Sequence record: MN342150 | Length of the DNA: 64,000 nt | Origin: Escherichia phage vB_EcoM_3HA11 | Strand: one strand, 5' to 3' | In this document: piece by piece, positions 26,258 through 57,182 of the stretch | Numbering within the stretch: position 1 is the stretch's first letter | Layout of the letters: each line of letters starts with the position of its first letter | Notes under the pieces: model-generated | Databases searched by the model: none | What the model was told of the DNA's origin: nothing | Seen by the model: only the letters and a program-made list of their open reading frames with translations | Program-made: the position numbers and the translations under genes

Positions 26258-26920
26258 ATGTCTTATTCGCTCAAAGGGCTGTTGAAGCGCCCTGTGCATT
26301 TGTTTGTCAAACCACCTGCTGTAGAAGGGGAATATTCGGCACGAGGAGAGTTGTATTACATTAAAGGCTCCAATGGTAGTGGTAAGTCTACTGTGCCCTC
26401 TTATTTGGCGGAGAATGATCCTCAGGCGTATGTCGTAACCCATAACAGTAAGATCATGCTCACGGTTTGTCCATCTTACAATATTGTCTGTGTCGGTAAA
26501 TATGACAAGTCTAAGTCCAAAGGGGTTGATTCTCTGAAGGATACTGAGCAGATGTTGTTCGCGTTGTCTATTTCTGACCAACCAGAATACCTGAAATATG
26601 ATGTGATTTTCGAAGGCATCATTCCGTCTACATTATTGAGTTCTTGGATCCCCCGCCTGACACGCCCACCACGTGAATTGGTCGTCCTCTTTATGGATAC
26701 CCCTCTTGAAACCTGTATTGCCCGTGTTAAATCGCGTAACGGTGGCGCAGACTTCAATGAAAGTCTGGTGGTCGAGAAGTGGGAGCGCGTTCACAACCAT
26801 CGGGGGCGGCATAAAGAGTTGTTCCCTACCGTGTGTGCGGGTATGATGAAGTCTCACGGTCTAACTGTAGACCAAGCTGTAATGGCGTTCCTCCTCCGTG
26901 ACTTTGGGAGCATTGACTAA
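26258..26920 (+). CDS. P-loop kinase (candidate nucleotide or DNA-base kinase)
   Basis: Walker A GSNGSGKST; first gene of a translationally coupled operon; its stop overlaps the start of the hydroxymethylase gene. Confidence 0.55.
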   Translation: MSYSLKGLLKRPVHLFVKPPAVEGEYSARGELYYIKGSNGSGKSTVPSYLAENDPQAYVVTHNSKIMLTVCPSYNIVCVGKYDKSKSKGVDSLKDTEQMLFALSISDQPEYLKYDVIFEGIIPSTLLSSWIPRLTRPPRELVVLFMDTPLETCIARVKSRNGGADFNESLVVEKWERVHNHRGRHKELFPTVCAGMMKSHGLTVDQAVMAFLLRDFGSID

Positions 26921-27966
26921 TGGAAATTAAAGCTATCAATAACAACGACATGCTGAAACAGGCTGTCTTGGCTATCCGTGAATACGGGATTGAATCTGAT
27001 CCTGGCAACGCGGAGATCAACACTGACGGCACCCGCTTTCTTGATGGTGTGACTATCACCGTCAGTGATATCCGTGACCGCTGGTTATCCGTTGAAGGTC
27101 GCAACTCATCGGCCATCGCAGCTATCGGTGAGACTTTCTGGGTGCTGGCTGGGCGCAATGACCTGAAGTTCCTGTCACGTGTCCTGCCCCGCGCTGCCAA
27201 CTTCTCCGACGATGGCCTAACATGGCGAGCCGCTTATGGGCCGCGCCTGTACGCCCATGGTCAGTTACAGAGCGTCATCAACCGTCTCCGCAAAAACATC
27301 AACACCCGTCAGGCGTATCTCACCATCTATGATCCGTCTCTGGACTCTGATGTTGGTCTGGCCAAGCACAACGGCTCAAACGAAGCGAAGACCAAAGACA
27401 TGGTGTGTAACCTGGCTCTGTTATTTGCTGTCGTTGAAGGTCGTCTGAACCTGACGGTCATCAACCGCTCACAAGATGTCCTGTGGGGTATGAGTTCAAT
27501 CAACTTCATTGAGTTCTCTATCCTTCAGGAAGTGATCGCGCAGGTGCTGGATGTAGACGTCGGCCAGTACAAGCTGTTCTCTAACAATCTTCATTACTAC
27601 AACAATGAAGTCAGCCAGAAGCAGCTGGGTAAGATCACGAAGGACACCAAAGTAGAAGCTGGGTTCATCAACTCCATGATTCACTTCACGAACGTGACCA
27701 ACCAGAACCATATCCGCAATCTGTTCACTGGTGTGCTTCATCACTGTGATATCGGTAGCCCGTGGGAAACTGTGGTCGCCCACCTGAAGGAGTACGATGC
27801 TGATCGCGGCCTGATCGTACAGATGGCATACTGCCTGTACTGCAAGCTGAACGACAAGCTCATCAACATGAACCTGATTCAGGATCATGGCCTGAACATT
27901 GCACTCACTCACTCTCCGGTTGACCGCAAGATCGTTGATCCAAAGTTCCTGGAAGGTGCGTTATGA
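26920..27966 (+). CDS. thymidylate synthase-family pyrimidine hydroxymethylase (gp42-like; base specificity uncertain)
   Basis: Blocks GETFWVLAGRND, DMVCNLA (catalytic Cys without the P-C-H of true TS, as in T4 dCMP hydroxymethylase DFMCTNT), NRSQDVLWG and GQYKLFSNNLHYY; 348 aa. Confidence 0.65.
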   Translation: MEIKAINNNDMLKQAVLAIREYGIESDPGNAEINTDGTRFLDGVTITVSDIRDRWLSVEGRNSSAIAAIGETFWVLAGRNDLKFLSRVLPRAANFSDDGLTWRAAYGPRLYAHGQLQSVINRLRKNINTRQAYLTIYDPSLDSDVGLAKHNGSNEAKTKDMVCNLALLFAVVEGRLNLTVINRSQDVLWGMSSINFIEFSILQEVIAQVLDVDVGQYKLFSNNLHYYNNEVSQKQLGKITKDTKVEAGFINSMIHFTNVTNQNHIRNLFTGVLHHCDIGSPWETVVAHLKEYDADRGLIVQMAYCLYCKLNDKLINMNLIQDHGLNIALTHSPVDRKIVDPKFLEGAL

Positions 27967-28532
27967 TGTATCCAAACCTTGAATTCTTTACGGGGCGTAA
28001 GCGCTCCGGCAAGGACTTCTGTTTGGAGTCCCTGATCAGCTACCACCATCTACAGGGAGACAAGGACATTCAACGCCTGTCTTTCTCGGATGAGCTGCGC
28101 CGTGTTGCCAACTACATCTACCCGTGGCTGCCTGAGGAGGTGGAGGATGCTGTGAAGGACGTTTCATTCATACACCCCGATAACCCCAAGGGCTTAACTC
28201 CACGGCAGATCTGGCTTCATCTCGGCAGCGATACGGGCTTGCGTTACGTACAGCCTGATCTGTTCCTGGCGTTCTTCAAGCGCTTCCAGCTTCCTCTGGT
28301 AGAGCAGAACCCTCACGTCCATTATATCGTGAGCGACCTGCGCACCCCCCAGGAATATGAATGGGCGCTGAGTACGAAATGTCCTATCACCCGCATTTCA
28401 AAGGCCGACCGCGCTGGTATCATAGAGGACGATATAGAGGCTTTCATTGATAAGATGGAAGTTGATTATGAATTTGTCAATCCGTTTGAAGGTTGGCAAC
28501 CGTTCGTCAAATTTTATAGGGATCGGAAATGA
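27963..28532 (+). CDS. 1: deoxynucleoside monophosphate kinase (T4 gp1-like)
   Basis: P-loop GRKRSGKDF matches the T4 gp1 GVKRSGKDT pattern; ATGA overlap with the upstream gene. Confidence 0.65.
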   Translation: MMYPNLEFFTGRKRSGKDFCLESLISYHHLQGDKDIQRLSFSDELRRVANYIYPWLPEEVEDAVKDVSFIHPDNPKGLTPRQIWLHLGSDTGLRYVQPDLFLAFFKRFQLPLVEQNPHVHYIVSDLRTPQEYEWALSTKCPITRISKADRAGIIEDDIEAFIDKMEVDYEFVNPFEGWQPFVKFYRDRK

Positions 28533-29077
28533 TCACAACAGAGCATATTAAAAGTCTGCTCGAACTTCAAAAGGCCACCAACGTGGCCTATTTTGGGGAA
28601 GAGTGGAAGAATGTATGGAGTCAGAACGCGATCATCAACTCCATCTATCGCGAGTGGGCGGAGTTCCTTGACGAAACCACCCGCGACTGGAAGGTCTATG
28701 GTAACGACATCGGGTTTCACCATGCGAACGCAGTCTATGAACTGGTGGACGTGGTTCACTTCATGCTGTGTTTCATCCTCGTCGATCGCACCAAAGGAGA
28801 GATTGAAGAAGAAATGGAGAATCTTGGCCGACGGCTCGTCCCAGGGACGAGTTCAGTAGGGCATCGCAATGTTACGTATCGCCTTGGGCAGTTCATGAAC
28901 GATCCTTGCGTCGAGACTCTCATGGTCTTCCTATCGACTGTGTGTTCTTACATGGAGATCGACATTGAGACCTACATGCTGGCACACAAGCGCAAAAACG
29001 ATCGCAATCGGCTGCGTGCTGCTGGCGGCGCGAATTACGATAAGTCCGCAGAAACCCCTCTGACCCTGGAGTTCTAA
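28529..29077 (+). CDS. 56: dCTPase/dUTPase-type all-alpha NTP pyrophosphatase (T4 gp56-like)
   Basis: ELVDVVHFMLCFIL block matches T4 gp56 ELVDIFHFVLNMFV; 182 aa. Confidence 0.65.
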   Translation: MITTEHIKSLLELQKATNVAYFGEEWKNVWSQNAIINSIYREWAEFLDETTRDWKVYGNDIGFHHANAVYELVDVVHFMLCFILVDRTKGEIEEEMENLGRRLVPGTSSVGHRNVTYRLGQFMNDPCVETLMVFLSTVCSYMEIDIETYMLAHKRKNDRNRLRAAGGANYDKSAETPLTLEF

Positions 29078-29607
29078 TGTTTACAGTTGTCGTATCATAT
29101 TATGCGGAACATGCCCCGCAAATGGCAGAGAACTTTGCTGAGTTTATTAAACCTGGCAGACATGTCGTTATCGCGACCAAATTCAACAAAGAACCAGATG
29201 GTGCGGCTACTGTAACGCAACATATTACAACTCCAGAGCCGGAAACCCTTTTCAAACGTATTGAAGATTTTGCTTTTGGCGGGGAAGAAATTCCAGAGTC
29301 ATTACAGCATATCTATTTTGAAGATGCGATATATTATGTTCATGCTATTCCAAAGGATGTTACAACTGAACAAATGATGTATATCCTGAATATCGCATTG
29401 AATGTTTCTTGTGTCAACAGGGCACAGCACAATCGTCTGCGTAATATGTATTTAACAGAACGCGGGGGTTCCGAAATTAACGATGAAAAACTCCCGTCAA
29501 TAATGGCGATTCACGAAGCAATCAATATATTGTCCAAGAAAGTCTTGGGCACCGATTTATTAATTACGATCAACAAGCAAGAGGAAACGAAATGGCCGAT
29601 TCATTGA
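29077..29607 (+). CDS. hypothetical protein (176 aa) within the nucleotide-modification operon
   Basis: ORF coupled to dCTPase (TAATG overlap) and overlapping the uvsX start. Confidence 0.45.
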   Translation: MFTVVVSYYAEHAPQMAENFAEFIKPGRHVVIATKFNKEPDGAATVTQHITTPEPETLFKRIEDFAFGGEEIPESLQHIYFEDAIYYVHAIPKDVTTEQMMYILNIALNVSCVNRAQHNRLRNMYLTERGGSEINDEKLPSIMAIHEAINILSKKVLGTDLLITINKQEETKWPIH

Positions 29608-45314: not shown

Positions 45315-45836
45315 TTAATTCCTTACTTTGTCAGGATTAGATAATATTTGTTCGTATCCGACTTCTCCTTGATAGTCGAAAACATGCTGAAGAATCGCCA
45401 TATCGTCTACCATCCGATAAACTTCAATTCCAGCGTTCATCAATTTTTTGATTCCATCCATAATACGATATGGCTCACGATAATATACTTTATCGATTTT
45501 ACCGCTATCTATTATCTTTTGAGTGCAATTAGGGCAAGGACTATGTGTCACAAACATAACCAACCCTGTGAAATCATCTGCATTTTCGGGGATACGCATT
45601 AGAGCATTTTCCTCCGCATGAACAACACACGGGTTTGTAACAATTTGCCCGTGTTGCTCCATCTCACAAACATTCGGCATGCCAGGAGGCGTTCCGTTCC
45701 ATCCGATAGCCACAGGCTGATCAGTTTCAGGGTTTACGATAACACAACCGACTTGCAGACGCCGAGCATAACTGGTTACACCATATGCTGCAGCTGATCG
45801 CATATGAGCAAACATCATACGTGGTTTGATAGCCAT
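45315..45836 (-). CDS. cd: dCMP deaminase
   Basis: Zinc-binding motifs VHAEENA and SPCPNC. Confidence 0.8.
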   Translation of the reverse strand: MAIKPRMMFAHMRSAAAYGVTSYARRLQVGCVIVNPETDQPVAIGWNGTPPGMPNVCEMEQHGQIVTNPCVVHAEENALMRIPENADDFTGLVMFVTHSPCPNCTQKIIDSGKIDKVYYREPYRIMDGIKKLMNAGIEVYRMVDDMAILQHVFDYQGEVGYEQILSNPDKVRN

Positions 45837-46153
45837 TATTTTATCAGAGCCTTTTCAAGTAAAAAGATCATGTCATCCTGGTCGGCGCGGCCAAAGATCT
45901 GACCGAGGGACACCATGGAATGAACCTCTTTGACAATCAGGTCTTTGCCTGTTACACCGCTGTTGTCCAATTCGAGAATTGTAGACATGCGCTCAACCAT
46001 ATGAGGTGGATGATTGATATAACGTTGAAGATACTTTTCACGCAACGCAATTTTTTCGATAAGATCTGACATTTCTGCATTCTCTTCTGAATACAGACGT
46101 TCTTTAGATTTCAGTTCTTCGAGGCGTTCGTACATTTCTTTTAATGAAATCAT
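45836..46153 (-). CDS. hypothetical protein
   Basis: ATG at 46153 with SD GGGAGAG. Confidence 0.4.
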   Translation of the reverse strand: MISLKEMYERLEELKSKERLYSEENAEMSDLIEKIALREKYLQRYINHPPHMVERMSTILELDNSGVTGKDLIVKEVHSMVSLGQIFGRADQDDMIFLLEKALIK

Positions 46154-46215
46154 GTTTATCTCTCCCAATAAATTAAGGGGAAGTATACCTTCCCCTTCTT
46201 CAATAAAATAAATTA

Positions 46216-46566
46216 TTATTCAGTACAAGCTCGACCAAGTTCAGTCAGGCGGTAGAATGTTACTTCTGATTTCGGCCAATGCTTATACTCTTCAGAGTCA
46301 TCATGAACCATTGTAAACGCAGGTTCGATCAGACCTTTAGATAATAATGATTGCCCTGAACGTGTATCCCACGGATCACCTTTTACAGAACGAAACCCAC
46401 CAGCAATCGGAGGGGTATGGAATGTCCATACTGTCTTGCCCTTTTCATTCGTCCAAGACTTCGGATTGAAATACCAATGACAAAGGCGTCTGGCTTCACC
46501 CTTTTCAAAATTTAACATTCCTAAAAGGACGCAGAGTTGATGTCCTGTGATTCTTGGCTTTTTCAT
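46216..46566 (-). CDS. hypothetical protein
   Basis: ORF. Confidence 0.4.
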   Translation of the reverse strand: MKKPRITGHQLCVLLGMLNFEKGEARRLCHWYFNPKSWTNEKGKTVWTFHTPPIAGGFRSVKGDPWDTRSGQSLLSKGLIEPAFTMVHDDSEEYKHWPKSEVTFYRLTELGRACTE

Positions 46567-46895
46567 AAGATCCCCAAGTCAGTAAGGTAACGATAAGACA
46601 GGACTACAGATAGAAATCCAATTAACGCCCAAGACGACAGAATAGGCTTGCAATTTAGCGTAGTCTTTCCATTGGGTATGTTGGGACTTCCAGTAATAAC
46701 AACCGAATCCGTTTCAGCTCTCAGTGTCATGACAGAACCCATGAGAATGATTGGGCGCACATAATATCCTTCATTATTGCGCTTTACGATACATGGTGAA
46801 GAAAATCGCAGGAACGGATCACCGCTTTTATAACCGAATAACTCGACCTTTTCTATTTCTTCGGGTACTTTCTGACCAGGAAAGAATATTTTCAT
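46563..46895 (-). CDS. hypothetical protein
   Basis: ORF, ATGA overlaps with neighbours. Confidence 0.4.
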
Positions 46896-47470
46896 AATGC
46901 AATTCCTAAATTTGTGTATAACAACTCAGCCAGGGTGACAGGACGCTTGAATTGTTCCCAACTGCAGTTCAGGTATTCGCGCTCTTCGCGAATATTTTCG
47001 TGAAGATGGCCATGGATATTATACGCCCAACGGTCTAATTGATAAGGAACATGTGTTGTCAACACACGGCCAACAGGCGTGTCACGTTCGTACATAGCGC
47101 CGAAGGAGCTAATCCAGCCGTCCATATACAAAGACAACAGCATCTTAAAGCTGTCGTGGTTGCCCTGTGCCACCCTGATGATAAAGTTCGGACGCCAGTC
47201 ATCGGGGACGGGGCGTCGCTTAAACTCATCAATGTTTCGCTTGGCACCCTCCCGCATCAGGCGAATGAACCCTTCAGCCCCGATGAAGCATATATCACCA
47301 GCCAGTTCAAGGACGTCCCGAGACTTCAGCCCCTGGAAGATCGTGTCGATAACCGCAGCGTCATGCGCTTCCTGTGTATCAAATCCACGCGGTTTAAAGA
47401 CCTTCTTATGCCCAAGGTGAGTGTCACCAAGGTACTTTACGATTCCCGCCATTATGGTTTCCTCAGCCAT
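46892..47470 (-). CDS. calcineurin-like metallophosphoesterase
   Basis: Motifs GDTHLG, GNHD and GHLH. Confidence 0.6.
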
Positions 47471-47793
47471 TCTAAAATTGGTACGTTCACAAACCCTTTG
47501 TGCCAGCGGTGTGGGTTGTGGCCTCTGTTATGATCTAGTAAGCACGTATCGGGAGGAACACTGAAGTGAATGCCTTCGATGTCATAATAATTCCCATCAA
47601 TCAGGGTGTATACATGACCTTCAATCTGGCTATAATGGATCTCTGCTTGGGGATACACATGCTTCAGAACCAGAGCAACCTGATAGCACTTTCCGTTCTT
47701 CCCGATATACTCGACATCGACCTGTTGTGGGAACACGTCTTTGATAAGATTTATCAATCTCGTGATATCATTTACAACAACCGAACGTTTCAT
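47452..47793 (-). CDS. hypothetical protein
   Basis: ORF. Confidence 0.4.
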
Positions 47794-47795
47794 CT

Positions 47796-48458
47796 CTATG
47801 ATAACTCATGGCGGTGTCGAACACACGCAGGGCAATTACAATTCTTTTTCAAAATTGGCATTTCACACCATGTCATTAAGTCATGTATTGGGGACATGTG
47901 ATGATAGAACCAAGATTTCTTGAGACTAATCAATGGATATAAAATTTCAATAGGTCTTTCCCCGTCTCTGGTCATCATGTTGTACCCTTCAATGACTTTA
48001 TTAAAAGCGGGTATCCAGTGTATTGCGTCATCGCCGTTAACATATGCCAATATATACGTGGACGGCAAGCCCCTGCCTTTAAATTGCGTGTTTAATAACC
48101 ATATCGGGGCTTGTGCTAAACAAGCGCGAAAACCACCGTCAGGGACGTTGATGCCACTGATAGGTTCTTGATGATGTGTCCAACGATACATAAGAAGTGG
48201 GGCATTTTTATTAATCCAGTTGTGAATTTTATTCCTCGCCCAATTTTCGCGTTTAGATTTGCATTTATTATTTTCGAGGTGGCAATACACAGTATGAACT
48301 GAATATCCTTTCGATAACAACCAAATCAACATGTATGTGCTATCCACCCCACCAGACCAGAACAACGTCACTTCTTGATTATTCTCCGGCAATGGAGCAT
48401 CCCCTTGAAGAACACGGTATACAAAATCACAATCAGATATTGAGACAACAATTTCCAT
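47796..48458 (-). CDS. queC: QueC-like PP-loop ATPase (7-cyano-7-deazaguanine synthase family, putative)
   Basis: PP-loop SGGVDST near the N-terminus and a C-terminal Cys cluster C-x8-C-N-C-P-A-C as in QueC zinc sites; 220 aa. Confidence 0.55.
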   Translation of the reverse strand: MEIVVSISDCDFVYRVLQGDAPLPENNQEVTLFWSGGVDSTYMLIWLLSKGYSVHTVYCHLENNKCKSKRENWARNKIHNWINKNAPLLMYRWTHHQEPISGINVPDGGFRACLAQAPIWLLNTQFKGRGLPSTYILAYVNGDDAIHWIPAFNKVIEGYNMMTRDGERPIEILYPLISLKKSWFYHHMSPIHDLMTWCEMPILKKNCNCPACVRHRHELS

Positions 48459-52047: not shown

Positions 52048-53379
52048 TTATAGGCTTAATACCTTTTCAAGATCATCTAAATCATCATTGTAGAGATCAA
52101 TGTCTTGTTTGTTATTTAATTCTTCTCTTTGTTCTTCCAGATTCTTTATCTGATTCAACAATCGTTCACGTGCGTCTAACGTGATTGATGATAAAGACAT
52201 CTTGAATAATTCATCAAGATCACCATCAAAATCCGGATAATCCGTTTGAAACAACGCTTTCAGTTCTGTAATGCTGCGACGCATATCCGTAACCACAGCC
52301 CAACTGATGAATAATGCACGGTTGTTCAGGCGATGAATTTTATCAGTCATCTCCTTTAACAGGTATTGACGACGGTCTTCATAACGGATCAAACGATAGT
52401 TGAAGAAGGAAAGCAGCATCTCCTTCCACCCAGAATAACGTCGGATGACACCATCTTCATCCCATGCCGTCCAGACGGGTTTGTTCGCAGAGTACAGTTT
52501 GAACATCTGCTCGATTTGTGCATCATCCAGCTTAGACAATTCACCACGTTTGAACACGACAGTAATGTCCCAGCCGTCTTCGGTCGTGTCATTGGCGTAT
52601 TCAGTGAGCAAACCCGCCTTATACAACGGCAACAGAACTTTGGTCTCATACGATTTAGCGAACCAACCAATTGGGACCTCGGTGATGTGAAGGGTTGTAG
52701 CATTGATGCGTTTGAAGATGCCGCGACTGTATGCTCTTCCTTCCTCAGTATAGCCTGTCTCTCCTTTATATCCATTCCAGTACGGTTTTAAGTCCGTAGG
52801 GTCTTCGCCACGGAGAAGTGCTCTCAGAGCGCCGAGGACTGATTTAACGCAATGGCATGGGGTGTCCGTTGAGTACCCAGATCCGATACCATTAATTCCG
52901 TTCACCAAGAACATGGGAATAACAGGCAAAAAGAACTTTGGTTCCAATTGTTCTTCACCCAAGTAGTTGTAATCCAAAATCCCCTCATCTTCCTTACGGA
53001 ATATTTTACGGATAACATCGGATACAGAAACAGAGATGTAACGAGCAGACGATGCATCACGTCCCATGATAGAACCAAATTGACCATCACGGTCAAAGTA
53101 TGGAATATTGTTCGTACCAGGAAACGCCTGAGCCATGTTCACAATCGTATTGCCCATGTTCTCACCACCGGACTTGTAGTTGGTACGAGCGGCGGCGAAC
53201 ATACCCAGACGATCAACAATCTCTTCCTTGCCATATTCTAATGCAGTGAAAAGAATTTTGCGCTGACTTGGTTTCAAACTGTCAATCAACTGAGGTATTT
53301 GACGGATGCTGTTGAACACAGAAAATGCCTTGTGATCATTATTGACATAATCCGTGACATTGATACTTTGAGCGACCAT
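52048..53379 (-). CDS. 52: DNA topoisomerase II medium subunit (GyrA-like, T4 gp52)
   Basis: Blocks IDSLKPSQR, IPYFDRDGQFGS and HITEVP match T4 gp52; ATG at 53379 (SD GAGGGAG) one base after the gp39 stop. Confidence 0.88.
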   Translation of the reverse strand: MVAQSINVTDYVNNDHKAFSVFNSIRQIPQLIDSLKPSQRKILFTALEYGKEEIVDRLGMFAAARTNYKSGGENMGNTIVNMAQAFPGTNNIPYFDRDGQFGSIMGRDASSARYISVSVSDVIRKIFRKEDEGILDYNYLGEEQLEPKFFLPVIPMFLVNGINGIGSGYSTDTPCHCVKSVLGALRALLRGEDPTDLKPYWNGYKGETGYTEEGRAYSRGIFKRINATTLHITEVPIGWFAKSYETKVLLPLYKAGLLTEYANDTTEDGWDITVVFKRGELSKLDDAQIEQMFKLYSANKPVWTAWDEDGVIRRYSGWKEMLLSFFNYRLIRYEDRRQYLLKEMTDKIHRLNNRALFISWAVVTDMRRSITELKALFQTDYPDFDGDLDELFKMSLSSITLDARERLLNQIKNLEEQREELNNKQDIDLYNDDLDDLEKVLSL

Positions 53380-53380
53380 C

Positions 53381-55291
53381 TTATTCTCCCTCTGTTTCAA
53401 ACAAACAAACATCACTAAACCAGGTTTTGCGGTAATCGGAGGCCTCATCACCGAAGCCGTTCTTCAGTGATTCTTTGTAGTTGTCATCCAACGTGACCGT
53501 CGTAGTATACGCATCCAGATTGTTTAGAATACGTTTGAAGTCTTCAGTGCTGTTACCACCAAGACCTTTCAGATATTTCTTCTTCGTAATCTTCTTGGCG
53601 TCAGGGGTTTTTAAAAATTCTTCATATTCCGTATTGCTCATAAACTCATACATCGTTTTACCACACCAAATACGCATGTATGGTGTGCGCAGGAGTTTCA
53701 GCCTACCCTGACGGACGTACTCCGGCCAATATGTGCAATACAGGGTAATCAACAAACCACGGATGTGAATGCCATCATCGTCCGCATCGGTGGCTACAAC
53801 AGTCTGTGGATAGCGGGTGATATCAATCGGCTGACCTGGGACTGCGCCTCCATGAATCGTGCAAAGATTCTTGAACTCCTCATTATTCATTACCTTTGAT
53901 CGCGGATTGTTTAAACAATTGATGAATTTACCACGCAAAGGGAATAATCCGATCTTTTTAGTATCACGGGCGTTCAGGATAGGATTGGACGCGCTGTCAC
54001 CTTCAGTCAATAACAGAGAGCACCCACTGCGATCACCACGGGCGGTCGCCGGATAATACTTCTCTATCTCACGATAATCCCGTTTGCTAATATCCTTCTT
54101 GGCCTTTTCAAATTCAGCATCATCTTGGTCGTTACGCAAGGCGGCCAATTCTTTGCTCAGGCCAGCTGTGACAAACTCCAGAGCCTTCCGGATTAGTTTA
54201 TCGCTGGGTTTATAGGTCGTACCAAACTGACTAACAGGAGTCGTCATGCGCTCCTTGGTTTGGCTATCAAAGCGTGGATTGTTGATATCCGCCGAGATGA
54301 AAAGCATCATATGGTTTTTAATCATAGAAGGCTTCAGATCAGTCTTAAACTTTTTCACCAATTGTGGGCGAATCGCATTCACGATCTGGTCAGCAACGTA
54401 ATCCACATGAGGACCACCGATATGGGTGGCAATGCTGTTCACATATGATGCATGAATAAACGCCCCCTGCGAAGGAGCAACAGCGACAGACCACTCCTCT
54501 GTTTCATCAACAGAAGAACCTTGGCAAAAGTAATCCACAAAATGGCCAAAGCGGTCGATACGGATTTGTTTCCCGTTCAGAATGACTTTCAGGCGCGGGT
54601 TACAAGCAGCCACTTCAAATGCTCGGCGATAGATCATCAACAAGTTATTTTGATCAAGACCTTTGACACCCAGACGCGCATAATCAGGTATCCATGCGAT
54701 AGACGTCCCAGGGGCATTCAAATTACTGATCACCGGATTAGAACGTTTGCTCAAATTGTCTTCAAATGTTTGAGTGTAAGACTTCTTCCCGTCATTTGTC
54801 GTGACACGGAACCATTTTGAAAATACGTTGACCAGTGAAGCCCCTTCACCGTTCTGACCACCTGATTTTTTGTTATTGTATTCTTCATCGTCGTCGTTGA
54901 AGTTGCTACCCGCATAGAGGGAGCCAAATAACATTTCAGGGAGCCATTCTTTGGTCTCCCCGTGTTTAACAACCGGAATACCCCCATTGTCAGCCACGAT
55001 GATCTGACCATTCATAGGAGAAACGGTAATGGTGATTTCTGTGAGGCTTTTACCTTCTGGCGTTTTGCTATGATCTACAGAGTTGGTGATAATTTCATCA
55101 AACTGTTTAATCAATGCAGGAGAATATTCAAAATTATCCTTGAATATAACTTGATCTTTTATTGGATCATATATCCAAGTTGTTCCAACGGATGAACGGA
55201 TACTGCCCAGATGACGCTCTGGGCGAAGAAGGATATGCTCTATGTGAGTGAGCTTTTTGTATTTTCGTTCAATATCAATCATATTAGACAT
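53381..55291 (-). CDS. 39: DNA topoisomerase II large subunit (GyrB-like ATPase plus Toprim, T4 gp39 with gp60 portion fused)
   Basis: GHKL block LIKQFDEIITNSVD, RFDSQTKERMTTP and Toprim LLLTEGDSA match T4 gp39; 636 aa. Confidence 0.9.
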   Translation of the reverse strand: MSNMIDIERKYKKLTHIEHILLRPERHLGSIRSSVGTTWIYDPIKDQVIFKDNFEYSPALIKQFDEIITNSVDHSKTPEGKSLTEITITVSPMNGQIIVADNGGIPVVKHGETKEWLPEMLFGSLYAGSNFNDDDEEYNNKKSGGQNGEGASLVNVFSKWFRVTTNDGKKSYTQTFEDNLSKRSNPVISNLNAPGTSIAWIPDYARLGVKGLDQNNLLMIYRRAFEVAACNPRLKVILNGKQIRIDRFGHFVDYFCQGSSVDETEEWSVAVAPSQGAFIHASYVNSIATHIGGPHVDYVADQIVNAIRPQLVKKFKTDLKPSMIKNHMMLFISADINNPRFDSQTKERMTTPVSQFGTTYKPSDKLIRKALEFVTAGLSKELAALRNDQDDAEFEKAKKDISKRDYREIEKYYPATARGDRSGCSLLLTEGDSASNPILNARDTKKIGLFPLRGKFINCLNNPRSKVMNNEEFKNLCTIHGGAVPGQPIDITRYPQTVVATDADDDGIHIRGLLITLYCTYWPEYVRQGRLKLLRTPYMRIWCGKTMYEFMSNTEYEEFLKTPDAKKITKKKYLKGLGGNSTEDFKRILNNLDAYTTTVTLDDNYKESLKNGFGDEASDYRKTWFSDVCLFETEGE

Positions 55292-55338: not shown

Positions 55339-55917
55339 TTATAGACCAAATTTACCGCGCCATTTCTGTACTTTGTGTTCAATGGCATGCTCAACTTTGA
55401 CTATGGTGCTTTTTAGATTATGGTTGTGATCACAAGCCAGTTTGGCAGTGTGTCGGATGACACCATTTACCAAATCGGCCAGATTATCATCTGTTCTTTG
55501 TGGTTGGTTGAGTAATCTGGTAATGCGACCTTTGTAGTGGTTGATCATCGCTAGTTGCTCGTCCAAACTATCAACCCCACCACAGAACCAATAATCTTCT
55601 AAGGTGTGTTGTGTGAGGTCACTTGTACAGTTGGCCCGAGACAGAGAGAACACGATCGAATCAAATATCTCGTCTTTGTTCATAGAGCCGTATTGTTGAA
55701 TATGCTGATATTCACAAACATACAACAAGTCCAGTGCTGAAATAATAACGTCTGCCACTTCACCATTCAGAGGTTCTGAAGCAGAAATCTCATATAACAC
55801 GTCAGACAATTCGCAAGTTTCTTCAACAAGTTTACAGAACACAAATACAGATGGGCGATTCGGTTCTTTCTGGCTGAGTTCATAAGATGTTTCTAAGATG
55901 CGACGAATAAATTTCAT
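55339..55917 (-). CDS. MazG-like all-alpha nucleotide pyrophosphohydrolase (putative)
   Basis: Acidic helix motifs LVEETCELSDV ... EVADVIISALDL. Confidence 0.5.
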   Translation of the reverse strand: MKFIRRILETSYELSQKEPNRPSVFVFCKLVEETCELSDVLYEISASEPLNGEVADVIISALDLLYVCEYQHIQQYGSMNKDEIFDSIVFSLSRANCTSDLTQHTLEDYWFCGGVDSLDEQLAMINHYKGRITRLLNQPQRTDDNLADLVNGVIRHTAKLACDHNHNLKSTIVKVEHAIEHKVQKWRGKFGL

Positions 55918-56399
55918 TTCAAATATCCTTCTAAGCGAAAGCGGTTGATATGTTGTATGATAAAGTCCATAGAGTTTTGAAAACTATATTTCCCCTGATG
56001 CTCATATGCATGAATAAGGGGAAGTCGGCTGTGAGCCAATTGGAATCGCAGTCTTGGTGGCATAGACAACAACTTGGCTGATGTCGCCGCGATAATACGA
56101 GAACGCAATATGGGGGAATCCGAATCAACGAGAGGGATTTGCGTTTTACCCAAATCCAATCCATACTTCTTGGCTTCATAACCACTCAGATGCCGAAGAG
56201 CATCATCGCGATATTTTATCCAGTACCAATAACCCTCGATAGAATCGAAGTGTCCGTCCAGGGTTTCAATCGGATGATGGGTAAAATGCGATAGGAATTT
56301 TCCCAGATCAGTCCGGCTTTGGCTGTATATGTTGTAATGATTGACACCCTCAGTTATAGGCGTCATCGCTTTCTTTGAAACATTCAGTAATATAAGCAT
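55914..56399 (-). CDS. NADAR (YbiA/DUF1768)-like protein, putative ADP-ribose-processing enzyme
   Basis: LGKFLSHF...PI...DGHFDSIEGYWYW resembles the NADAR G-x-F-S-N-F ... E-H-Y-F core; start uncertain (TTG 56414 or ATG 56399). Confidence 0.45.
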   Translation of the reverse strand: MLILLNVSKKAMTPITEGVNHYNIYSQSRTDLGKFLSHFTHHPIETLDGHFDSIEGYWYWIKYRDDALRHLSGYEAKKYGLDLGKTQIPLVDSDSPILRSRIIAATSAKLLSMPPRLRFQLAHSRLPLIHAYEHQGKYSFQNSMDFIIQHINRFRLEGYLK

Positions 56400-56439
56400 G
56401 ATATAGAGTCTCAAATCAAAATTGCTGTGTGTAATCAGG

Positions 56440-56631
56440 TCAAATCTTTTTATATGCTTTCAGGGTACAGATAATAGAGACGCCGCCAAACAGAACGAGC
56501 AATATGAATCGTTCCATCCTGAAATCAGGAAGGGAAAGCAGTCCCACAAGGCTGTCTAAAGCAATCATGAACGTTACTCCAGTCAGCATGCCTAACTTAA
56601 AGGAGTTGGAACCTCTTTTGCAACGTAGCAT
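56440..56631 (-). CDS. small membrane protein
   Basis: Two hydrophobic segments in 63 aa. Confidence 0.3.
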   Translation of the reverse strand: MLRCKRGSNSFKLGMLTGVTFMIALDSLVGLLSLPDFRMERFILLVLFGGVSIICTLKAYKKI

Positions 56632-56678: not shown

Positions 56679-57182
56679 CTAGCCCAGAAACACTACTAAA
56701 GTCAAATTTGTAAAGCAGCTGCGATTATCTTTTAACATTTGATGGGCAGCGGAAAGGCGCTTAGCATCATGCAGAGTATCTGAAAACACGATGATATTGG
56801 CCTTGTCGATTTTGGTTCCCATAAAATTGGCCATGGTCGACGTTTTCTCTTTTCGATCAAATTTTTCATACTGCTCCCCTGTGGTTACATTTTTCGATTG
56901 AGTGAAAAACGTATCACGTTCACGAGCAGTGTGAAATACACCGAATACGTCGATTTCATTTTCAATTTGGAATTTTTCAGAAAGGAGTTTCTTTAACGCC
57001 GCAGTGTGACCAGTCTGGCGAAGCATTCGATAGTAGAGCATGCTCCCACTGTCTGCGGGATCAAGGTCGTGACGAATCCGACGATCTTTTTGAATTTCAT
57101 ACACATCTAGAACCAATTGTTGTAGCATTTCAATATGCGCATTAAGGGATACTTCTACTTTTCGTTTAACTAAAGATTTCAT
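56679..57182 (-). CDS. hypothetical protein
   Basis: ORF. Confidence 0.4.
   Translation of the reverse strand: MKSLVKRKVEVSLNAHIEMLQQLVLDVYEIQKDRRIRHDLDPADSGSMLYYRMLRQTGHTAALKKLLSEKFQIENEIDVFGVFHTARERDTFFTQSKNVTTGEQYEKFDRKEKTSTMANFMGTKIDKANIIVFSDTLHDAKRLSAAHQMLKDNRSCFTNLTLVVFLG

Follow-up and report, generated by a model that had tools for sequence, protein, structure and literature searches.

ORF 55914-56399 lies on the minus strand of a 64,000-nucleotide stretch of Escherichia phage vB_EcoM_3HA11 (sequence record MN342150; this whole stretch is referred to as the window) and encodes a protein of 161 residues. A sequence-only reading of the window had proposed that the product of this open reading frame (ORF) resembles the NADAR/YbiA proteins; the ORF is intact, and the resemblance holds. 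The ORF matches the annotated coding sequence Vi01_010 of Salmonella phage Vi01, and its product is a small, basic and stand-alone member of the NADAR superfamily, presumably an enzyme, with an isoelectric point (pI) of 9.4 compared with 9.0 for AdfN, the gp30.3 protein of phage T4. The start codon is taken to be the ATG at 56399. Alternative starts are a TTG at 56414 (166 aa) and an internal ATG at 56366 (150 aa), near which distant homologues begin, and the choice among the three leaves the conserved domain unaffected. The orthologue in FrontPhageNews (gp54) is labelled "putative N-glycosidase" in GenBank, while most other records read "hypothetical protein".

Standard domain models do not detect the NADAR relationship. 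The 161-residue protein matches no Pfam model at all at E ≤ 1, and 26 members of its family have no match to PF08719 (NADAR) or PF08010 (Phage_30_3; gathering score 36 bits) at E ≤ 10. Scans of the ORF against NCBIfam and PADLOC return nothing related to NADAR and no DarG-type PADLOC match. A phmmer search of the ORF against PDB sequences finds nothing, and the family profile produces only a spurious collagen match in the same database (E-value: 0.38). The single library match of the ORF is PHROG 652, to which no function is assigned. Among 62 multidomain relatives, two show weak, sub-threshold matches to PF08010 (e.g. 20.4 bits) and one matches PF08719 through a separate canonical domain. The sequence-only reading had named a search with NADAR (DUF1768) hidden Markov models (HMMs) as its own check, with failure to recover NADAR counting against it. 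By that measure the claim would fail, as PF08719 is silent even at E ≤ 10; the assignment rests on more sensitive methods, which consistently give the opposite answer.

Profile-profile comparison relates the protein to AdfN. When the alignment of the ORF's family is compared by hhalign with that of the T4 gp30.3/AdfN family (members carrying PF08010), the two match over 134 columns with 96.8% probability (E-value: 2.4e-10). The family alignment is needed for this result: hhalign against the single T4 gp30.3 sequence gives a probability of only 51%, and pairwise BLASTP against the same protein is marginal (28% identity over a 57-residue stretch, E-value: 0.003). An alignment of 150 family representatives matches the single YbiA sequence with 94.9% probability (E-value: 4e-8), and several family members match YbiA directly in phmmer searches. 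An AlphaFold2 model of the protein, built on a 26-sequence alignment, has a mean predicted local distance difference test score (pLDDT) of 95.3 and a predicted template modelling score (pTM) of 0.88. The model shows the alpha+beta fold of the NADARs, in which two small beta-hairpins flank a helical core. Its top three Foldseek matches in the PDB are NADARs, and a structure search of BFVD returns family members first, followed by many viral proteins named "NADAR domain-containing". The protein is almost certainly a member of the NADAR superfamily. By fold, profile-profile homology and domain-fusion context it is a His-type NADAR and a distant sister of gp30.3/AdfN.

The conserved catalytic residues, whose absence from an alignment would also have counted against the earlier assignment, are present. 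Glu55, Lys62 and His130 align with positions that bind the distal ribose and the pyrophosphate of ADP-ribose (ADPr) in solved NADARs (Table 1). Conservation was assessed in the best 150 of 1,923 cluster representatives of the family. Glu55 is glutamate in all 150 aligned sequences, and His130, which adjoins the strand that opens the C-terminal hairpin (residues 131-134 of the model), is invariant in the family alignment and histidine in 148 of 149 representatives. Two lysines, K77 (97%) and K109 (100%), are similarly conserved. The position equivalent to His130 is occupied by Glu in YbiA-type proteins, by Asp in DarG1-type proteins and by His in the "phage NADARs" (PMC11543638, PMC11125620, PMC12945103). 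In T4 AdfN, function is lost in both the E36A and the K43A mutants (PMC11825919).

The 1,923 representatives (50% identity clusters) were obtained at E ≤ 1e-3 in an exhaustive profile search, 469 of them at E ≤ 1e-30. The PHROG 652 clade is therefore large; it is also phage-borne, essentially unannotated and missed by current Pfam models. Extensions of at least 60 residues are found in 62 of 149 representatives. The Pfam domains fused in the 62 multidomain relatives are DUF4326 (13 proteins), YAcAr SLOG (9), Macro (8), DprA-like SLOG (8) and, more rarely, DUF488-N3a (4), an Rv2179c-like exoribonuclease (2) and a canonical NADAR (1); fusions to YpsA-type SLOG and metallophosphoesterase domains also occur. 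The DUF4326, YAcAr SLOG, Macro and canonical NADAR architectures are the set described for viral NADARs (PMC9503650). One relative adjoins a YAcAr SLOG gene. In the single chain of a metagenomic representative of 1,415 aa (P0224), residues 12-142 form a canonical NADAR domain like that of YbiA and residues 546-695 a PHROG 652-type domain, and the presence of two NADAR types in one protein suggests that their specificities are non-redundant.

Table 1. Positions of the NADAR-like ORF, its active-site codons and other features of the window.
Feature	Positions	Strand	Remarks
Nucleotide-pool cassette	26920-29607	+	Thymidylate-synthase-like (348 aa, PF00303), dNMP-kinase-like, all-alpha dUTPase_2 (PF08761) and phage ACT-like (PF24021) genes
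dCMP deaminase	45315-45836	-	Leftward array
DUF7618 protein	46563-46895	-	Leftward array
Phosphoesterase-like protein	46892-47470	-	PHROG 547
Phage YunG-like protein	47452-47793	-	Leftward array
QueC-like PP-loop ATPase	47796-48458	-	Leftward array
Macro-domain protein, 206 aa	49889-50509	-	DarG/TARG1-like class; 5.4 kb from NADAR-like ORF
Topoisomerase II subunit ORFs	52048-53451 and 53381-55291	-	71-bp overlap with longest (GTG) start of downstream ORF
MazG-like all-alpha NTP pyrophosphatase candidate, 192 aa	55339-55917	-	PHROG 1247 "MazG-like pyrophosphatase", E-value 7.5e-38
NADAR-superfamily ORF, 161 aa	55914-56399	-	ATG at 56399; intact; Vi01_010 homologue; PHROG 652
His130 codon (LPLIHAY)	56010-56012	-	Equivalent to T4 AdfN H123 (hhalign with gp30.3/AdfN family)
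Position 81 codon	56157-56159	-	Aligned to GR of canonical NADARs
Lys62 codon	56214-56216	-	Equivalent to T4 AdfN K43 and phosphate-binding PnNADAR K50 / C7 K95 (hhalign with gp30.3, YbiA)
Glu55 codon (SIEGYWYW)	56235-56237	-	Equivalent to T4 AdfN E36, PnNADAR E43 and E. coli C7 NADAR E88 (hhalign with gp30.3, YbiA)
Predicted membrane protein, 63 aa, conserved	56440-56631	-	PHROG 4835, function unassigned; 40 nt upstream of NADAR-like gene
Histone-like gene	56679-57182	-	

The tested 5.5 kb is 99% identical to Escherichia phages Sa157lw and 241 and to Salmonella phage Vi01, and on this identity the window is assigned to a Vi01-like Kuttervirus (Ackermannviridae) and not to the Straboviridae or to a strictly T4-like phage. 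The sequence-only reading had called the genome T4-like, a label explained by the order rIIA-rIIB-topoisomerase-dexA, which is akin to that of the T4 early region. The ORF belongs to a long leftward gene array that includes, in this order, rIIA and rIIB, then several small genes, a structural protein with an Ig domain and the histone-like protein. These are followed by the 63-residue membrane protein, the NADAR-like ORF, the MazG-like gene and the large and medium subunits of topoisomerase II. More small genes, the macro-domain gene, dexA, the QueC-like gene, the phosphoesterase and dCMP deaminase come next.

A strong GC-rich hairpin with a T-tract (AAAGAGGCTTCGGCCTCTTT TTCATTG; 57272-57253, minus strand) lies just upstream of the histone-like gene, and a promoter-like TTTTCA-16-TATAAT site (57254-57227, minus strand) overlaps it. 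Together they may mark a transcription-unit boundary that opens the group of histone-like, membrane, NADAR, MazG-like and topoisomerase genes. A promoter and terminator scan around the NADAR-like gene finds five sites, compared with 5.4 expected in shuffled sequence. As this is not above chance, no promoter is claimed. The overlap of the topoisomerase ORFs is annotated in Vi01 and FrontPhageNews, whereas phage 241 is annotated with a later start, at which the two ORFs do not overlap. It is uncertain where the medium subunit begins. At 45315-48458 (minus strand), several candidate nucleotide- or base-modifying genes cluster with the macro-domain gene. The nucleotide-pool cassette presumably serves thymidine hypermodification and pool control, judging by what is known of Vi01-like phages.

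The gene immediately downstream of the ORF had been described as that of a MazG-like NTPase. It is found where expected, and its PHROG match (Table 1) makes the product a candidate MazG-like nucleoside triphosphate (NTP) pyrophosphatase, but searches of Pfam, NCBIfam and PDB sequences returned nothing for it. In the translation, an EExxE...ExxD motif can be made out by eye. This gene and the NADAR-like ORF overlap by 4 bp, where the start codon of the one and the stop codon of the other share ATGA, a junction that suggests translational coupling of the two genes. Annotated feature lists show the two side by side across genera of the Ackermannviridae. Within 5 kb of four distant members of the family, neither a MazG-like nor a macro homologue is found, and the MazG linkage is therefore treated as specific to the Ackermannviridae and not as a property of the whole family. 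A role for the MazG-like protein as the enzyme that controls the dUTP/dTTP pool for hypermodification was considered and rejected: a separate dUTPase_2, unrelated to it by BLASTP, is encoded in the thymidylate-synthase-like cassette.

The macro-domain gene that had been placed about 6 kb from the ORF is real. Its product is most similar among PDB sequences to the DarG macrodomains 5m3i (phmmer E-value: 1e-4), 7omu and 5m31. The top library models are PADLOC DarG (E-value: 2.8e-10) and NCBIfam DarG (E-value: 2.5e-9), the latter with 36.9 bits, far under the 250-bit cut-off of that model. A profile of the macro family matches DarG at 3.9e-13 and 2.3e-12 and then TARG1 at about 8e-11, and homologues at about 45% identity carry PF01661. 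By these comparisons, homology and fold are confirmed. The invariant Asn34 aligns with the active-site Asn22 of DarG (Taq DarG numbering) and the GCGIGG loop is akin to the GxGNGG loop of DarG, but the catalytic Lys80 of DarG is replaced by Gln90 (motif NLYTQ), which is invariant in 15 homologues down to 30% identity. The equivalent catalytic lysine is K78 in AdfM, a phage macrodomain that acts as an anti-DarTG2 factor in the chimallivirus PhiKZ (PMC13309987). The protein also differs from DarG2 and AdfM in having no DarT-binding domain. Because Gln90 stands at the catalytic position, this macro protein cannot be assumed to erase thymine-ADPr by a DarG-like mechanism, and the Gln90 clade may use a different mechanism or act on a different substrate. 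The sequence-only reading had suggested that the phage may carry two chemically distinct ADP-ribose erasers in this island. Genes of both types are there, but the substitution in the second leaves its eraser function in doubt.

Among characterized proteins, T4 gp30.3/AdfN (PF08010) is the closest by profile comparison. Both proteins are stand-alone, basic and about 150-160 residues long, consist of the core NADAR fold only and are encoded among phage early genes, the Kuttervirus protein as judged by gene order. Both have an N-terminal LSNF...EG motif that contains the catalytic Glu, with a Lys seven residues on, and His in place of Glu or Asp in the C-terminal hairpin motif. They differ in that the Kuttervirus protein has signatures of its own (HINIYS, EGYWYWL and LP.HYY). 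In its wider clade the Lys is unconserved, fusions to SLOG, Macro and DUF4326 are frequent and the host range exceeds that of the T4-like phages. From E. coli YbiA and the canonical NADARs (PF08719; PDB 2b3w, 8bau) the protein differs as follows: identity is 17-19%, and the strand Glu (PnNADAR E125) is replaced by His. The DarG1 NADARs of E. coli C7 and Geobacter lovleyi (PDB 8bat) have an N-terminal extension that the core-only Kuttervirus protein lacks, and a catalytic Asp (C7 D171) where it has His. No DarT1 gene adjoins the ORF, whose neighbours are instead the small membrane, histone-like, MazG-like and topoisomerase genes. AdfN-Bas32 (T5-like) and AdfN-Bas60 (Vequintavirinae) are likewise phage NADARs outside the T-even group, each independently acquired (PMC11825919). 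Both were found by a DELTA-BLAST conserved-domain search and lie near the canonical NADARs, whereas the Kuttervirus protein escapes such profiles; by this description they are set apart from it.

A model for the function of the ORF protein is as follows. The protein would be produced from the leftward rIIA-to-dexA array, early in infection as judged by gene order. It would cleave the N-glycosidic bond that joins ADP-ribose to N2 of guanine bases in DNA, and so strip the ADP-ribose that DarT1-type host toxins place on replicating phage DNA. It would then be an orphan, antitoxin-like counter-defence protein analogous to AdfN. By conjecture, the MazG-like gene and the DarG/TARG1-like macro gene may supply further parts of the same anti-ADP-ribose or nucleotide toolkit. 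Substrate and role are assigned by analogy because every NADAR tested so far acts on guanine-ADPr. This adduct is hydrolysed by all four NADAR families tested (PMC11125620, PMC12945103), and the AdfN proteins of T4, Bas32 and Bas60 all act on it and counter DarTG1 as orphan antitoxins (PMC11825919). The ORF protein probably has N-glycohydrolase activity of the ADP-ribose type. Chances are about equal for and against guanine-ADPr on DNA being its natural substrate. Protection against DarTG1 in vivo is possible, if somewhat doubtful. Taken as a whole, down to the hydrolysis of guanine-ADPr in DNA, this model is the best explanation of the data, and our confidence in it is evenly divided.

Several observations weigh against the model. 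None of the HMM libraries searched (Pfam with PF08719 and PF08010, NCBIfam and PADLOC) recognizes the ORF protein, and its identity to the solved NADARs is low. The D..WG motif, which contacts the pyrophosphate in canonical NADARs, is absent from it, as it is also from gp30.3. Position 62 is Lys in only 12 of the 150 representatives (8%) and is mostly Gly, Ser or Leu; with the phosphate-binding Lys so poorly conserved, substrate binding in the clade may differ. In addition, Iyer et al. took the family-wide fusions to SLOG, Macro and DUF4326 as a sign that soluble ADPr derivatives, and not DNA adducts, are involved. Finally, T4 AdfN gave no rescue from DarT1 outside T-even infection (PMC11125620, PMC11825919), and activity in vitro is therefore no guarantee of counter-defence.

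The variation at position 62 has a counterpart elsewhere in the protein. K62 is present in the ORF protein and its Ackermannviridae orthologues, which have no basic residue at position 81. Among 173 sequences, Lys or Arg occurs only at position 81 in 118, only at position 62 in 18 (mostly Ackermannviridae), at both in 12 and at neither in 25. The basic residues that alternate between the two positions may represent a relocated pyrophosphate-binding side chain, although the sequences are not independent and phylogeny confounds the comparison.

The main rival of the model is in line with the reading of Iyer et al.; we consider it rather unlikely. In this explanation, the protein would be a NADAR-fold hydrolase with soluble ADPr derivatives as its natural substrates, for example immune signals of the cyclic-ADPR or His-ADPR type, ADPr-1''-phosphate or toxins made from NAD. 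Together with phage macro and phosphatase-type enzymes, it would quench host NAD+-based signalling and have no part in DNA repair. The relatives fused to SLOG (YAcAr, YpsA and DprA-like), Macro, DUF4326 (predicted to be a ribose-phosphate phosphatase) and metallophosphoesterase domains are consistent with such a role (PMC9503650); the relative with an adjacent SLOG gene and the varying phosphate-binding Lys point the same way. However, the experimentally tested phage NADARs all act on guanine-ADPr in DNA (PMC11825919, PMC11125620, PMC12945103), and no NADAR has so far been shown to cleave an immune signalling molecule. The nearest characterized relative by profile comparison is AdfN, and the Kuttervirus protein is itself stand-alone and basic. 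Less probable still is that the PHROG 652 clade constitutes a fifth NADAR family with a specificity of its own, which could act not on guanine-N2-ADPr but on some other ADPr adduct or on an immune signal derived from ADPr. Such an enzyme of the Kutterviruses would join the Lys-to-Gln, DarG-like macro protein and the coupled MazG-like protein in a pathway of three enzymes, by which a molecule that the host makes from NAD+ is taken apart.

The MazG-like neighbour raises another explanation, in which the ORF protein would be a nucleotide or base N-glycosidase unrelated to ADP-ribose. It would resemble YbiA acting on riboflavin intermediates, and would work with the MazG-like enzyme in pool control in connection with the thymidine hypermodification pathway of Kutterviruses. 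The 4-bp overlap of the two genes and their adjacency across Ackermannviridae genera favour this, and an N-glycosidase role is reported for E. coli YbiA (cited in PMC11125620). The genome also encodes a dCMP deaminase, besides the cassette of thymidylate-synthase-like, dNMP-kinase and dUTPase_2 genes. We consider the explanation improbable: the cassette, at a distance of about 27 kb, itself encodes an all-alpha dUTPase, and the MazG-like gene does not accompany the four distant family members. The fusions found across the family are to ADPr modules and not to nucleotide-synthesis enzymes, and the His-type active site fits gp30.3/AdfN rather than YbiA. That the protein has the NADAR fold but is not catalytic, and either binds or sequesters ADPr-containing molecules or inhibits a toxin directly as AdfA does, is very improbable: the missing D..WG motif and the poorly conserved phosphate-binding Lys would allow it, as would the fact that phages counter NAD-based defences with sponges and with direct inhibitors (AdfA and AdfB; cited in PMC13309987), but the near-absolute conservation of E55, H130, K77 and K109 in about 150 diverse representatives indicates a conserved active site, and T4 AdfN, whose site is likewise of the His type, acts as a catalyst without binding DarT1 (PMC11825919).

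The combination of NADAR-type and macro genes had been thought undescribed in such a genome. The concept is already published, in the reports of AdfN (PMC11825919), AdfM (PMC13309987) and the co-occurrence of Macro and NADAR domains (PMC9503650), and the ORF extends it. NADAR domains are found in 27% of myoviruses, and their co-occurrence with Macro domains is non-random (PMC9503650). In a literature search whose scope excluded the supplements of the surveys (PMC9503650, PMC11825919), no paper on a NADAR in Kutterviruses was found, and a single co-mention looked incidental. What is new here is that the clade of Vi01_010 is a large His-type NADAR clade missed by PF08719 and PF08010, and that the genome also encodes a macro protein of the DarG/TARG1-like class in which Gln replaces the catalytic Lys.

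DarTG and other NAD+-based defences are common in enterobacteria, and Kutterviruses such as Vi01 and CBA120 are candidates for biocontrol and therapy against Salmonella and E. coli O157. The clade offers a natural test of which NADAR active-site residues matter, because it combines the His-type site with a variable phosphate-binding Lys. If the ORF protein is an AdfN-like eraser, counts of phage NADARs based on Pfam or CDD would miss a clade of about 1,900 clusters, and its recognition would help to predict which defence systems Kutterviruses escape.

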